Shown here piece by piece: positions 7,770 to 13,804 of a stretch of 20,311 nucleotides of DNA (position 1 is the first letter of the stretch; every line of letters starts with the position of its first letter). Origin of the DNA: Escherichia coli (GTDB lineage: Bacteria > Pseudomonadota > Gammaproteobacteria > Enterobacterales > Enterobacteriaceae); the NCBI RefSeq assembly GCF_003334335.1, contig NZ_QOWQ01000053.1, one strand, 5' to 3'. The position numbers and the translations under genes are program-made. The notes under the pieces were generated by a model. It was not told the origin of the DNA. It worked only from the letters and a program-made list of their open reading frames with translations, and ran no database searches.

Positions 7770-10049
7770 ATGAGCGAGCCGTTAATTGTCGGCATCCGGC
7801 ATCATAGTCCGGCCTGCGCCCGGCTGGTGAAATCGTTAATCGAAAGCCAGCGGCCACGATACGTATTGATTGAAGGCCCGGCTGATTTTAATGACCGGGT
7901 AGACGAACTGTTTTTAGCCCACCAGCTTCCGGTAGCTATTTACAGTTATTGCCAGTATCAGGACGGTGCAGCCCCCGGGCGTGGTGCCTGGACGCCATTT
8001 GCTGAATTTTCGCCGGAGTGGCAGGCGCTACAAGCCGCACGTCGTATTCAGGCACAAACTTACTTCATCGATTTGCCTTGCTGGGCGCAGAGTGAAGAAG
8101 TGGACGATTCGCCTGATACGCAAGAGGAAAGCCAGGCCTTGCTGCTGCGTGCCACCTGCATGGATAACAGCGACACCCTGTGGGATCACTTGTTCGAAGA
8201 TGAAAGCCAGCAAACTGCATTACCCTCTGCACTGGCGCACTATTTTGCCCAACTGCGGGGCGACTCCCCCGGAGATGCTCTCAATCGTCTGCGCGAAGCC
8301 TTTATGGCCCGCTGGATTGGATGGGCGATGCAGCAAAATAATGGCGACGTGTTAGTTGTCTGCGGTGGCTGGCACGCTCCGGTACTGGCAAAAATGTGGC
8401 GCGAATGCCCGCAGGAAATTAACACGCCAGAATTGCCGTCGCTGGCAGATGCCGTTACAGGTTGTTATCTCACCCCCTACAGTGAAAAGCGCCTTGATGT
8501 GCTGGCAGGATACCTTTCCGGAATGCCTGCCCCGGTCTGGCAAAACTGGTGCTGGCAGTGGGGCTTACAGCAGGCGGGAGAACAACTGCTAAAAACGGTT
8601 CTCACCCGTTTGCGCCAGCACAAGTTGCCTGCTTCGACCGCGGATATGGCTGCCGCTCATCTGCATGCGATGGCACTGGCACAGTTGCGCGGTCATACAC
8701 TACCGTTACGCACTGACTGGCTGGATGCCATAGCAGGATCGCTGATTAAAGAAGCCCTGAATGCGCCGTTGCCGTGGAGCTATCGCGGCGTTATTCATCC
8801 CGACACCGATCCGATTCTGCTAACGTTGATAGACACATTAGCGGGTGACGGATTCGGTAAACTTGCCCCTTCTACGCCACAACCTCCTCTGCCAAAAGAT
8901 GTCACCTGCGAACTGGAACGTACCGCAATCTCCCTTCCGGCGGAGCTTACCTTAAATCGCTTTAACCCCAATGGACTAGCGCAAAGTCAGGTGTTACATC
9001 GGCTGGCAATACTGGAGATCCCAGGGATTGTGCGCCAGCAGGGAAGCACACTGACACTTGCAGGCAACGGTGAAGAACACTGGAAATTAACCCGCCCGCT
9101 TAGCCAGCATGCGGCATTGATTGAGGCCGCCTGCTTTGGTGCCACACTCCAGGAAGCCGCACGCCATAAATTAGAAGCCGATATGCTGGACGCGGGTGGA
9201 ATCGGCAGTATCACCACATGTCTTAGCCAGGCGGCGTTAGCGGGTCTGGCGTCCTTCAGTCAACAATTACTGGAGCAACTCACATTATTAATCGCCCAGG
9301 AAAATCAATTTGCCGAAATGGGCCAGGCGCTGGAAGTGCTATATGCCTTATGGCGGCTGGATGAAATTAGCGGTATGCAAGGCGCGCAGATATTACAAAC
9401 GACGTTATGCGCGGCTATCGATCGCACGCTGTGGCTGTGTGAATCTAACGGCAGACCGGATGAAAAGGAGTTTCACGCTCACCTGCATAGCTGGCAAGCG
9501 CTTTGCCATATTCTGCGCGATCTACATAGCGGCGTTAATTTATCCGGCGTTTCGCTTTCTGCGGCGGTAGCCTTACTGGAGCGACGCAGTCAGGCGATTC
9601 ATGCCCCGGCGCTGGATCGCGGCGCGGTTCTTGGCGCACTAATGCGTCTGGAACATCCCAACGCCAGTGCCGAAGCGGCGCTGACGATGCTGGCGCAGTT
9701 ATCCCCGGCACAATCCGGCGAGGCGCTGCACGGTTTGCTGGCATTAGCCCGTCATCAACTGGCCTGTCAGCCGGCATTTATCGCCGGTTTCAGCAGTCAT
9801 TTAAATCAACTAAGTGATGCCGATTTTACCAATGCCCTGCCCGATTTACGCGCGGCAATGGCCTGGCTACCGCCACGAGAACGCGGGACGCTGGCGCATC
9901 AGGTGCTTGAGCATTATCAACTGGCGCAACTTCCCGTTTCGGCACTGCAAATGCCGTTGCATTGTCCACCGCAAGCCATTGCACATCATCAACAACTCGA
10001 ACAGCAGGCACTGGCATCGCTGCAACACTGGGGAGTTTTCCATGTCTGA
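7770..10049 (+). CDS. yehM: YehM, large protein (759 aa) of unknown function
   Basis: ATG at 7770 is 10 nt after the yehL stop, with GAGGA immediately upstream. The ORF-track start at 7602 would overlap yehL by 158 nt. The stop overlaps the yehP start (ATGTCTGA). Confidence 0.8.
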   Translation: MSEPLIVGIRHHSPACARLVKSLIESQRPRYVLIEGPADFNDRVDELFLAHQLPVAIYSYCQYQDGAAPGRGAWTPFAEFSPEWQALQAARRIQAQTYFIDLPCWAQSEEVDDSPDTQEESQALLLRATCMDNSDTLWDHLFEDESQQTALPSALAHYFAQLRGDSPGDALNRLREAFMARWIGWAMQQNNGDVLVVCGGWHAPVLAKMWRECPQEINTPELPSLADAVTGCYLTPYSEKRLDVLAGYLSGMPAPVWQNWCWQWGLQQAGEQLLKTVLTRLRQHKLPASTADMAAAHLHAMALAQLRGHTLPLRTDWLDAIAGSLIKEALNAPLPWSYRGVIHPDTDPILLTLIDTLAGDGFGKLAPSTPQPPLPKDVTCELERTAISLPAELTLNRFNPNGLAQSQVLHRLAILEIPGIVRQQGSTLTLAGNGEEHWKLTRPLSQHAALIEAACFGATLQEAARHKLEADMLDAGGIGSITTCLSQAALAGLASFSQQLLEQLTLLIAQENQFAEMGQALEVLYALWRLDEISGMQGAQILQTTLCAAIDRTLWLCESNGRPDEKEFHAHLHSWQALCHILRDLHSGVNLSGVSLSAAVALLERRSQAIHAPALDRGAVLGALMRLEHPNASAEAALTMLAQLSPAQSGEALHGLLALARHQLACQPAFIAGFSSHLNQLSDADFTNALPDLRAAMAWLPPRERGTLAHQVLEHYQLAQLPVSALQMPLHCPPQAIAHHQQLEQQALASLQHWGVFHV

Positions 10050-11178
10050 ACTGAACGATCTTCTGACCACCCGTGAGCTACAACGCTGGCGATTAATTCT
10101 TGGCGAAGCGGCAGAAACGACGCTTTGTGGGCTGGATGACAACGCCCGGCAGATAGACCACGCGCTGGAGTGGCTGTATGGGCGCGATCCTGAACGGCTC
10201 CAGCGTGGTGAACGCTCCGGTGGATTAGGTGGCTCAAATCTCACCACCCCTGAGTGGATCAACAGTATTCACACGCTGTTTCCGCAACAGGTGATTGAGC
10301 GGCTGGAAAGCGATGCCGTACTGCGCTACGGCATTGAAGATGTGGTGACAAATCTCGACGTGCTGGAACGTATGCAGCCTTCCGAAAGCCTGCTACGCGC
10401 CGTTTTGCACACCAAACATCTGATGAATCCCGAAGTACTGGCTGCCGCCCGCCAGATAGTGCGCCAGGTTGTTGAAGAAATTATGGCGCGACTGGCAAAG
10501 GAAGTTCGCCAGGCTTTTTCTGGTGTCCGCGATCGCCGTCGCCGTTCATTTATTCCACTGGCGCGAAACTTTGATTTCAAAAGTACTCTGCGCGCCAACC
10601 TGCAACACTGGCACCCGCAACACGGCAAGTTGTATATCGAATCCCCCCGCTTTAACAGCCGCATTAAACGCCAAAGCGAACAATGGCAACTGGTCTTACT
10701 GGTTGATCAAAGCGGATCGATGGTCAATTCGGTGATCCACTCTGCGGTGATGGCGGCCTGTTTGTGGCAGTTACCCGGCATTCGTACCCATCTGGTGGCG
10801 TTTGACACAAGCGTCGTTGATCTCACGGCAGACGTTGCCGATCCGGTAGAGTTATTAATGAAAGTACAGTTGGGCGGCGGGACCAATATCGCCAGTGCCG
10901 TGGAGTATGGTCGGCAACTTATTGAACAACCAGCGAAAAGCGTCATTATCCTCGTGAGCGATTTTTACGAAGGGGGTTCATCATCATTACTGACGCATCA
11001 GGTGAAAAAGTGTGTCCAGAGCGGCATCAAAGTGCTGGGACTGGCAGCGCTCGATAGCACCGCAACACCTTGCTATGACCGCGATACGGCCCAGGCGCTG
11101 GTTAATGTCGGCGCACAAATAGCCGCCATGACGCCGGGCGAGCTGGCATCATGGCTTGCGGAGAATCTTCAGTCATGA
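10042..11178 (+). CDS. yehP: von Willebrand factor A (vWA) domain protein YehP (378 aa)
   Basis: MIDAS-like DxSxS motif (LVDQSGSM) followed by a G-G-T-N element, typical of vWA folds. Start ATG at 10042 overlaps the yehM stop by 8 nt. Confidence 0.85.
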   Translation: MSELNDLLTTRELQRWRLILGEAAETTLCGLDDNARQIDHALEWLYGRDPERLQRGERSGGLGGSNLTTPEWINSIHTLFPQQVIERLESDAVLRYGIEDVVTNLDVLERMQPSESLLRAVLHTKHLMNPEVLAAARQIVRQVVEEIMARLAKEVRQAFSGVRDRRRRSFIPLARNFDFKSTLRANLQHWHPQHGKLYIESPRFNSRIKRQSEQWQLVLLVDQSGSMVNSVIHSAVMAACLWQLPGIRTHLVAFDTSVVDLTADVADPVELLMKVQLGGGTNIASAVEYGRQLIEQPAKSVIILVSDFYEGGSSSLLTHQVKKCVQSGIKVLGLAALDSTATPCYDRDTAQALVNVGAQIAAMTPGELASWLAENLQS

Positions 11179-13178
11179 ATTCACTACGTCCGGAATTATT
11201 AGAACTGACACCACAGGCCCTGACGGCGTTAAGCAATGCCGGTTTTGTTAAGCGCAGTCTTAAGGAACTGGAAAATGGCAACGTCCCGGAGATCAGCCAT
11301 GAGAACGACGCTTTAATCGCCACCTTCAGTGACGGTGTCCGTACCCAGCTGGCGAACGGCCAGGCACTGAAAGAGGCTCAGTGCAGTTGCGGGGCCAACG
11401 GTATGTGCCGTCATCGCGTGATGCTGGTGTTAAGTTATCAACGACTTTGTGCCACCACTCAGTCTACGGAAAAAGAAGAAGAGTGGGATCCGGCAATCTG
11501 GCTGGAAGAACTGGCTACCCTTCCCGATGCTACCCGCAAACGCGCACAGGCACTGGTCGCTAAAGGCATCACCATTGAGTTGTTCTGTACGCCGGGCGAA
11601 ATTCCCTCTGCCCGCTTACCGATGAGCGATGTGCGTTTTTATTCCCGTAGCAGCATTCGTTTCGCCCGTTGTGATTGTATTGAAGGCACACTTTGCGAAC
11701 ATGTCGTACTGGCAGTACAGGCCTTTGTCCAGGCAAAAGCGCAGCAAGCGGAATTGACTCATTTAATCTGGCAGATGCGCAGCGAACACGTCACATCATC
11801 TGACGATCTGTTTGCCAGCGAAGAAGGCAAAACGTGTCGTCAATATGTTCAGCAACTAAGCCAGGCATTATGGCTGGGCGGCATCAGCCAGCCGCTTATT
11901 CACTACGAGGCCGCTTTCAGCCGCGCGCAGCAAGCAGCGGAACGCTGCAACTGGCGATGGGTGAGTGAATCGCTACGGCAACTGCGCGCCAGCGTTGATG
12001 CCTTCCACGCCCGCGCCAGCCACTATCATGCCGGAGAATGCTTACGTCAGCTTGCGGCATTAAACAGTCGATTAAATTGCGCACAAGAGATGGCGCGGCG
12101 CGACAGTGTTGGTGAAGTTCCTCCTGTGCCGTGGCGCACGGTCGTTGGCTCTGGCATTGCCGGAGAAGCAAAGCTTGATCATCTGCGGCTGGTGTCTTTA
12201 GGTATGCGTTGCTGGCAGGATATTGAGCATTATGGTTTACGCATCTGGTTTACCGATCCCGACACCGGCAGTATTTTGCACCTTTCGCGCAGTTGGCCGC
12301 GAAGTGAACAGGAAAACTCACCGGCAGCTACGCGTCGGCTGTTTAGTTTTCAGGCTGGCGCACTGGCGGGTGGGCAAATTGTTTCACAAGCAGCAAAACG
12401 CAGTGCCGATGGCGAGCTGCTGTTAGCTACCCGCAACCGCTTAAGCAGCGTTGTGCCGCTGTCGCCTGATGCCTGGCAAATGTTGAGCGCGCCGTTACGC
12501 CAGTCGGGCATTGTGGCTTTGCGGGAATATTTACGCCAGCGTCCCCCCTCCTGCATACGGCCTCTTAATCAGGTCGATAACTTATTTATTCTGCCGGTCG
12601 CTGAGTGTATTTCGCTCGGTTGGGATAGCAGCCGCCAGACGCTGGATGCGCAGGTAATCAGCGGCGAAGGTGAAGATAATCTGCTGACGTTATCACTGCC
12701 AGCCTCAGCCAGCGCGCCTTATGCCATTGAACGCATGGCGGCGCTTTTGCAACAAACAGACGACCCCGTGTGTCTGGTTTCTGGCTTTGTCAGTTTTGTT
12801 GATGGGCAATTGACACTGGAACCACAGGTAATGATGACAAAGACTCGTGCCTGGGCGCTGGACGCAGAAACTGCGCCTGTGGTGGCATCACTACCTTCTG
12901 TCAGCGTTCTGCCTGTGCCGTCTACTGCTCATCAGTTGCTGATGCGCTGCCAGGCATTACTTATTCAACTGCTCCATAACGGCTGGCGCTATCAGGAACA
13001 GAGTGCTATTGGTCAGGCAGAGTTGCTGGCGAATGACCTCACCGCGGTGGGTTTTTATCGGCTGGCACATGTATTGGGACAATTTCGTAATACAGAAAGC
13101 GAGGCACGGGTAGAAGCAATGAATAACTGCGTTTTGCTGTGCGAACAATTATTCCCCATGCTTCAGCAACAAGGATGA
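11175..13178 (+). CDS. yehQ: SWIM zinc-finger protein YehQ (667 aa as called here)
   Basis: Two CxC...CxH signatures (CSCGANGMCRHRVM and CDCIEGTLCEHVV) characteristic of SWIM zinc fingers. ATG at 11175 overlaps the yehP stop (ATGA). GGAG lies 11 nt upstream. The alternative in-frame ATG at 11151 is less well placed. Confidence 0.8.
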   Translation: MNSLRPELLELTPQALTALSNAGFVKRSLKELENGNVPEISHENDALIATFSDGVRTQLANGQALKEAQCSCGANGMCRHRVMLVLSYQRLCATTQSTEKEEEWDPAIWLEELATLPDATRKRAQALVAKGITIELFCTPGEIPSARLPMSDVRFYSRSSIRFARCDCIEGTLCEHVVLAVQAFVQAKAQQAELTHLIWQMRSEHVTSSDDLFASEEGKTCRQYVQQLSQALWLGGISQPLIHYEAAFSRAQQAAERCNWRWVSESLRQLRASVDAFHARASHYHAGECLRQLAALNSRLNCAQEMARRDSVGEVPPVPWRTVVGSGIAGEAKLDHLRLVSLGMRCWQDIEHYGLRIWFTDPDTGSILHLSRSWPRSEQENSPAATRRLFSFQAGALAGGQIVSQAAKRSADGELLLATRNRLSSVVPLSPDAWQMLSAPLRQSGIVALREYLRQRPPSCIRPLNQVDNLFILPVAECISLGWDSSRQTLDAQVISGEGEDNLLTLSLPASASAPYAIERMAALLQQTDDPVCLVSGFVSFVDGQLTLEPQVMMTKTRAWALDAETAPVVASLPSVSVLPVPSTAHQLLMRCQALLIQLLHNGWRYQEQSAIGQAELLANDLTAVGFYRLAHVLGQFRNTESEARVEAMNNCVLLCEQLFPMLQQQG

Positions 13179-13302
13179 AATAGTGCTTTTTACTAAGAGT
13201 TCTACTCCAGTTCCGGACTGCTCACACCACGGTATTAGGCATATCCTATATAGCCCCTGGTGAGAGTCACCAGTTCCTTGATTAAATAAAATGGAGTTTT
13301 AC

Positions 13303-13764
13303 ATGAAGGCTTTCAATAAGCTGTTTTCCCTTGTTGTTGCATCTGTTCTGGTTTTCTCTCTTGCTGGCTGCGGTGACAAAGAAGAATCGAAGAAATTCAG
13401 CGCCAATCTGAACGGCACTGAAATTGCCATTACCTATGTCTACAAAGGTGACAAGGTGCTTAAGCAATCTTCAGAAACCAAAATTCAATTTGCCTCTATT
13501 GGTGCAACCACCAAAGAAGACGCTGCCAAGACACTTGAGCCGTTAAGCGCCAAATACAAAAACATCGCGGGTGTTGAAGAAAAATTAACCTATACCGATA
13601 CCTACGCGCAGGAAAACGTGACTATCGATATGGAAAAAGTGGATTTTAAAGCCCTGCAGGGTATTTCAGGAATCAACGTTTCTGCTGAAGATGCCAAAAA
13701 AGGTATCACTATGGCGCAAATGGAACTGGTGATGAAAGCCGCTGGTTTTAAAGAAGTGAAATAA
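13303..13764 (+). CDS. yehR: Lipoprotein YehR (153 aa)
   Basis: Signal peptide with lipobox LAGC (MKAFNKLFSLVVASVLVFSLAGCGDK). GGAG 6 nt upstream of the ATG at 13303. The ORF-track start at 13291 overlaps the RBS. Confidence 0.85.
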   Translation: MKAFNKLFSLVVASVLVFSLAGCGDKEESKKFSANLNGTEIAITYVYKGDKVLKQSSETKIQFASIGATTKEDAAKTLEPLSAKYKNIAGVEEKLTYTDTYAQENVTIDMEKVDFKALQGISGINVSAEDAKKGITMAQMELVMKAAGFKEVK

Positions 13765-13770
13765 TCTGTC

Positions 13771-13795
13771 GGCGGCCATGTTTCGCATGGCCGCC
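13771..13795. terminator. Hairpin between convergent yehR and yehS, likely a shared terminator
   Basis: GGCGGCCATG, loop TTTCG, CATGGCCGCC: a perfect 10-bp stem between the two stop codons (13764 and 13805). The flanking U-tract is weak. Confidence 0.55.
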
Positions 13796-13804
13796 ATACC
13801 CGTC

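Follow-up and report, generated by a model that had tools for sequence, protein, structure and literature searches.

The ompA and papA mRNAs are stabilised by 5'-terminal stem-loops, as summarised in a review (PMC3997798) that gives Emory, Bouvet and Belasco 1992, Arnold et al. 1998 and Bricker and Belasco 1999 as the primary work. These leaders are the closest described systems to a perfect palindrome, CTGGTGA-gag-TCACCAG, which lies just upstream of yehR in a 20,311-nt stretch of Escherichia coli DNA (contig NZ_QOWQ01000053.1, hereafter the window). Like the ompA and papA leaders, the yehR leader would carry a hairpin that is short and stable and lies no more than a few nucleotides from its 5' end, upstream of the ribosome-binding site and without overlapping it; it differs from them in that this 5' end is a predicted one and in that about 3–4 unpaired nucleotides precede the stem. 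The yehR stem is also shorter and weaker than the 5' hairpin of ompA. Two further kinds of element invite comparison, namely (i) Rho-independent terminators, which the palindrome resembles in its G+C-containing stem (7 bp, 4 of them G-C), short loop and T-rich tail, and from which it departs in the 4 T residues among the first 8 nt of its tail in the window, its low free energy and its position inside the leader of the downstream gene, and (ii) promoter-proximal operators such as lacO1 (centred at +11), which it resembles as a perfect 17-bp dyad whose centre falls near +13 of the predicted transcript, while lacking their cognate protein and other known sites and having a geometry that is not kept in orthologous promoters. 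We tentatively favour the comparison with ompA and papA, according to which the palindrome would give rise to a 7-bp RNA stem with a 3-nt loop and about −8 to −9 kcal/mol, close to the start of the yehR mRNA; this is the most probable of the readings considered here, although we hold it with somewhat less than even confidence. As such, the element is a fresh instance of a very common kind of feature.

An inverted repeat finder located the palindrome (CTGGTGAGAGTCACCAG) at 13257–13273, exactly where the earlier note had placed it, and returned two arms of 7 nt each that are 100% complementary and separated by a 3-nt spacer. On the + strand, the left arm (CTGGTGA) occupies 13257–13263, the loop (GAG) 13264–13266 and the right arm (TCACCAG) 13267–13273, followed by a T-rich tail (TTCCTTGATT) at 13274–13283; the stem stops at exactly 7 bp, since C13256 and T13274 form no pair. 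In its local sequence the element reads ...tatagcccCTGGTGAgagTCACCAGttccttgattaaataaaatggagttttacATG... and lies between two genes of the same strand: yehQ (11151–13178 including the stop codon), which is intact here and encodes a SWIM zinc finger protein, and yehR (13303–13764, with the K-12-type ATG and the start MKAFNKLF...), which encodes a lipoprotein of the DUF1307/YehR family with the lipobox LAGC. The left arm begins 78 nt after the yehQ stop codon and the right arm ends 29 nt before the yehR ATG, in agreement with the distances of about 80 and about 30 that had been reported. The neighbourhood comprises yehLMPQ, yehS, btsRS and mlrA, while outside Escherichia the upstream neighbour of yehR is metG and not yehQ. 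An identical palindrome is present in K-12 MG1655 at 2211179–2211195 of NC_000913.3, and the yehQ-yehR intergenic region was found in 5363 of 5426 complete E. coli genomes. The product of yehQ has 675 aa in the window and 614 aa in K-12 MG1655, where a GAG>TAG change at the codon corresponding to 13019–13021 (about positions 7940–7945 of the K-12 locus, L023) truncates it; the annotated yehQ-yehR gap in K-12 is consequently 280 nt.

Perfect inverted repeats with 7-bp arms and spacers of 3–8 nt are about as frequent in the window (10) as in dinucleotide shuffles of it (6.7 +/- 2.5), although only some 0.04 would be expected in the 124-nt yehQ-yehR spacer. The repeat by itself is thus unremarkable, and any functional claim must rest on its context and conservation. 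The motif search suggested in the earlier note covered the 20-kb window, in which the palindrome occurs once (0.05 expected) and no second copy exists even when up to 2 mismatches are allowed; in the motif form CTGGTGANNNTCACCAG, about 0.02 occurrences would be expected by chance in a complete E. coli genome. No match to the palindrome sequence was found in the papers searched.

The context was approached through the promoter of yehR, on whose regulation the literature is nearly absent. It is reported to be up-regulated in a cAMP-deficient background (PMC4512719), and a sigma-32 ChIP peak at yehR (Wade 2006) was not reproduced; a start site for yehR (b2123) was not found in the supplements of transcriptome, start-site or promoter-mapping papers. 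Upstream regions of yehR orthologs were collected from species-representative genomes, from the contigs of homologous proteins and, in one case, from a metagenome scan with the invariant ribosome-binding block, whose 6 loci included a single true yehR ortholog. Across the resulting set of about 14 enterobacterial lineages the intergenic regions cannot be aligned apart from a fixed layout, in which an 18-nt box, a 20-nt interval, the hexamer TATyCT, a further 7–9 nt and the trinucleotide CTG follow one another. This layout is kept in every genus examined, with either yehQ or metG upstream; the genera covered include Escherichia, Salmonella, Citrobacter, Superficieibacter, Phytobacter and others.

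In the window the box (ACTCCAGTTCCGGACTGC) lies at 13204–13221 and the predicted −10 hexamer (TATCCT) at 13242–13247, both on the + strand. The box reads ACTCCATTTCCGGACTGC across lineages and was formulated as the motif ACTCCNNNTYCGGACTGC at 20 nt from the TATyCT hexamer, while the spacer between the two is of unconserved sequence and yet has a constant length of 20 nt, the one departure being Phytobacter, which the script called at 19 nt. The TATyCT form of the hexamer is found in nearly all lineages, with T1, A2 and T6 as the key positions. A scan with the sigma-70 consensus detected no promoter here in the window, K-12, E. albertii or E. whittamii, since the −35 element (TGCTCA) is poor, and the promoter, which the earlier note does not mention, was recovered only through comparison. 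From the position of the hexamer a transcription start is expected at 13252–13254 on the + strand, with G13253, 6 nt after the hexamer, as the nearest purine. This predicted start at about 13253 is the key premise of what follows; on it, the 50-nt yehR leader would contain the palindrome at about +5 to +21, and the box would lie at about −50 to −33 with its centre near −41.5, where a site for a class II activator would be expected. Matches to the box motifs in the papers searched (Neisseria tuf) were due to chance. Compared with what we take to be the consensus sequences of BaeR, RcsB, NarL, BtsR, YpdB, sigma-E, sigma-32 and sigma-54, the box is at odds in spacing or key bases, and we know of no other consensus that fits it.

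The leader also contains a nearly invariant ribosome-binding block (ATAAAATGGAGTTTTAC) at 13286–13302 on the + strand, with the Shine-Dalgarno GGAG at 13293–13296 flanked by complementary TAAAA and TTTTA stretches. In a slightly longer form (ATAAAATGGAGTTTTACATG, 13286–13305) it hardly changes from genus to genus, even where the YehR proteins share only 64–74% identity. On paper, the Shine-Dalgarno sequence, and with it a GGA, would sit in the loop of a small A/U hairpin, and the block might be a candidate site for a translational regulator such as CsrA. A second DUF1307 paralog lies beside yehR in Salmonella enterica (L013, 3131–3661) and in one metagenomic enterobacterium (L020, 1769–2227); these paralogs have neither the box nor the ribosome-binding block, so both elements are specific to yehR orthologs. 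A short upstream reading frame (GTG at 13260, 9 codons) was also considered and rejected, as neither its frame nor its length is kept among the lineages, many of which lack a start codon at this position. The delineation of the yehR promoter and leader, comprising a box at fixed spacing, a −10 hexamer and an invariant ribosome-binding block, is a by-product of this work, and these elements are handles for finding the control of YehR, for which no published start site or regulator was found in the papers searched.

As RNA, the 17-mer is predicted to fold at −8.3 kcal/mol. Within the first 38 nt of the predicted leader the hairpin is both the minimum free energy and the centroid structure (−9.3 kcal/mol, z = −2.8, with 2 of 200 shuffles as good), that is, the stable leader hairpin expected of a 5'-terminal stem-loop is present in the fold prediction, and the Shine-Dalgarno sequence is free of it, 20 nt downstream. 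Furthermore, the folding energies of the leaders of 12 lineages lie below those of shuffled sequences (Stouffer Z = −4.6). A search of Rfam at a permissive E-value returned only a chance snoRNA match (E = 0.36) at 12826–12914, about 340 nt upstream of the palindrome.

Conservation of the arms was assessed among six Escherichia lineages (E. coli, two cryptic clades, E. whittamii, E. albertii and a divergent E. coli). All 14 arm positions are identical among them, against 12 variable positions of 22 in the flanking leader (Fisher p = 7e-4), and the right arm, which is the same in all six lineages, differs from the flanks even when taken alone (0/7 variable, p = 0.023); the loop varies between gag and gcg, the latter being found in E. 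albertii. By this comparison, whose p-values overstate independence since the lineages are phylogenetically related, both arms are under constraint within Escherichia. E. fergusonii stands outside this conservation, as it has yehQ upstream without the compact hairpin and the T run. Among E. coli records, a 35-nt query around the palindrome was identical in 2827, differed at one position in 2268 and at two in 270, so that about 2500 of the 5365 records depart from the window sequence inside the query. In four sampled variant genomes the differences fell at 13255 and 13276, beside the arms, and none fell inside them; at 13276 all four carry T for C, which lengthens the T run after the hairpin (TTTCTTGATT). 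Since no compensatory change exists inside Escherichia, constraint on the RNA and constraint on the DNA are inseparable there.

Beyond Escherichia the two arms behave differently. The left arm is partly kept everywhere, in the forms CTGGTG, CTGGTA, CTGGCA, CTGATA and CTGCTA, so that a CTG, often extended to CTGGT, stands 7–9 nt after the −10 hexamer across genera, whereas the right arm is not found in a homologous position in other genera. RNAalifold, applied to a plain MAFFT alignment, gave no consensus pair, which leaves stems with right arms in non-homologous columns as the basis of any support from other genera. Such stems are frequent: in 8 of 13 lineages the conserved CTG is part of a perfect stem of 5 bp or more, where dinucleotide shuffles of the middle of each leader yield 1.5 on average. 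None of 20000 resamplings reached 8 lineages, a figure that overstates independence because the lineages are related, and several of the right arms are homologous to each other, so the count does not amount to 13 independent trials. In E. fergusonii, CTGGCA pairs with TGCCAG and the GCC at the predicted 5' end is paired too (GCC.CUGGCA / UGCCAGGGC), with 0 of 300 shuffles as good. Further stems are CTGGC-atat-GCCAG in MGYG-HGUT-00110, TCTGG...CCAGA in Citrobacter Res13, TCTGGT...ACCAGA in C. portucalensis, CTGGT...ACCAG in C. amalonaticus and CACAG...CTGTG in Superficieibacter electus, while two Phytobacter lineages combine an altered left arm with a matching partner (CTGCT...AGCAG). The loops of the CTG stems range from 3 to 28 nt, and this variability fits an RNA stem better than an operator of fixed geometry. 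The summed pairing probability of the anchor was 10.8, compared with 8.6 +/- 0.8 in shuffles, in a test whose null is high (0.4–0.67, for a G+C-rich 5' segment) and whose result is driven by few lineages. No convincing stem was seen in Salmonella or in L016 and L025, two Citrobacter lineages with short leaders. In L025 CTGGTG is retained and has no partner, from which it follows that conservation of the left arm has, at least in part, a promoter-proximal cause other than pairing.

On the stem-loop reading, which fits most of these observations, yehR would be transcribed from its own conserved promoter into a message starting at about 13253, and the 7-bp hairpin would form in vivo about 3–4 nt from the 5' end of this message. 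By analogy with ompA and papA, it may then hinder 5'-end-dependent decay (by RppH and subsequently RNase E) and so prolong the lifetime of the message, although with 3–4 unpaired 5' nucleotides such protection would be borderline. The same hairpin and T-rich tail would also occur in read-through transcripts of yehLMPQ, a fraction of which they may terminate; the reading is thus compatible with a weak terminator. The Escherichia hairpin would be, judging from the alternative stems described above, a compact version of a 5' stem present in many relatives. The palindrome itself would matter little, being one more leader hairpin that tunes the life of an mRNA or dampens read-through.

The strongest competitor, which we regard as possible but on balance unlikely, is that the palindrome has no function of its own, the left arm being kept as part of the start-site region and the right arm having arisen by chance in the ancestor of Escherichia without having diverged since. 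The chance-level frequency of 7-bp repeats in the window, the conservation of the left arm without any right arm in L025, the lack of an RNAalifold consensus structure and the high pairing null of the G+C-rich 5' segment are all as this explanation would have them. It accounts poorly for the invariance of the right arm next to a neighbouring leader in which more than half of the positions vary, and for the excess in other genera of stems built on the conserved CTG.

Less probable again, and in our judgement rather unlikely, is a weak intrinsic terminator or insulator, in which the hairpin and its T-rich tail would partly stop read-through from yehLMPQ and would attenuate transcripts started at the yehR promoter as well. 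Its premise is that in Escherichia the yehLMPQ operon has been placed upstream of yehR without a terminator of its own. The distribution of the element agrees with this, as the compact hairpin with its T-rich tail, which is conserved in Escherichia, occurs in Escherichia lineages that have yehQ upstream, no other terminator follows yehQ, and where metG is the upstream gene a strong metG terminator precedes the box instead; E. fergusonii, with yehQ upstream and neither compact hairpin nor T run, is the exception. The stem, with 7 pairs and a 3-nt loop, lies within the range usual for terminators (at least 5 bp, G+C-rich, with a loop of 3–8 nt), and the earlier note's suggestion of a weak yehLMPQ terminator agrees with a terminator-like scan in E. 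albertii (tail TTTTGTGATT) and E. whittamii (tail TTTTCTGATC), but not in the window or K-12, whose tail (TTCCTTGA) has 4 T residues where at least 5 in 8 are needed. The common E. coli allele with T at 13276 (TTTCTTGATT) would reach this number. At −8 to −9 kcal/mol the hairpin is less stable than one would expect of a terminator, in the predicted fold of a 112-nt read-through context its left arm pairs with upstream sequence and not with the right arm, and a position after the yehR promoter is an odd place for a dedicated operon terminator. Term-seq data for K-12 (Adams et al., bioRxiv 10.1101/2020.07.18.207399) list no + strand 3' end at the palindrome, a check of low power, as expression may be too low there and the listing may be incomplete; among the entries listed, the strong minus-strand end of yehS at 2211688 is the sole 3' end from 2204446 to 2215813, and for yehR the supplement lists only this yehS terminator and an antisense site.

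A broader proposal, to which we assign a slightly lower probability than to the terminator, is that the conserved elements together form an undescribed, multi-genus YehR module, consisting of the 18-nt box as a class II site (at about −41.5) for an activator, a start-proximal CTGG that nucleates a 5' stem and an almost invariant ribosome-binding block of 17–22 nt that would present GGAG flanked by complementary A and U runs. If this were true, the hairpin, or the dyad acting as an operator, would be a real control point of yehR and not a passive structure.

Least probable of all is that a dimeric helix-turn-helix repressor binds the 17-bp dyad and, in the manner of lacO1, blocks initiation or promoter escape at yehR from a site centred near +13. 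The element does have the dyad symmetry of such a site, with perfect 7-bp arms around a 3-bp spacer, within Escherichia its arms stay unchanged next to variable flanks, and it overlaps the predicted initial transcribed region. Its size is typical for dimeric repressors of this class. No cognate regulator is known or encoded nearby (yehLMPQ, yehS, btsRS, mlrA), no other copy exists in the window, and half-sites and spacing are kept only within Escherichia other than E. fergusonii. The half-sites resemble those of CRP, but are 3 and not the 6 bp apart that we take to be its consensus spacing, and the palindrome likewise disagrees, in spacing or key bases, with the presumed consensus sequences of LexA, LacI, FadR/GntR, SlmA and UvrY. 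Some negative control of yehR may exist, given its rise in the cAMP-deficient background (PMC4512719); nevertheless, the dimeric-regulator operator put forward in the earlier note drew no support beyond the dyad, and we consider it very doubtful, as in other genera the complement of the left arm stands 3–28 nt away or, as in L025, is absent, which misfits a fixed half-site spacing; within Escherichia itself the operator keeps a low probability.

Two further observations concern the surroundings of yehR. The convergent genes yehR and yehS share a terminator hairpin at 13770–13797 (GGCGGCCATG-tttcg-CATGGCCGCC), of which K-12 carries another allele (TTGGCGGTCATG-ctctaaa-CATGACCGCCAA) in which the stem is preserved by changes on both sides. 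Additionally, in E. coli ET650 (L034, about 791–1500) an IS1 element directly abuts the palindrome, with the junction at position 13254 of the window; the region from yehF to the yehR promoter is absent from this strain, such that yehR keeps only its leader.
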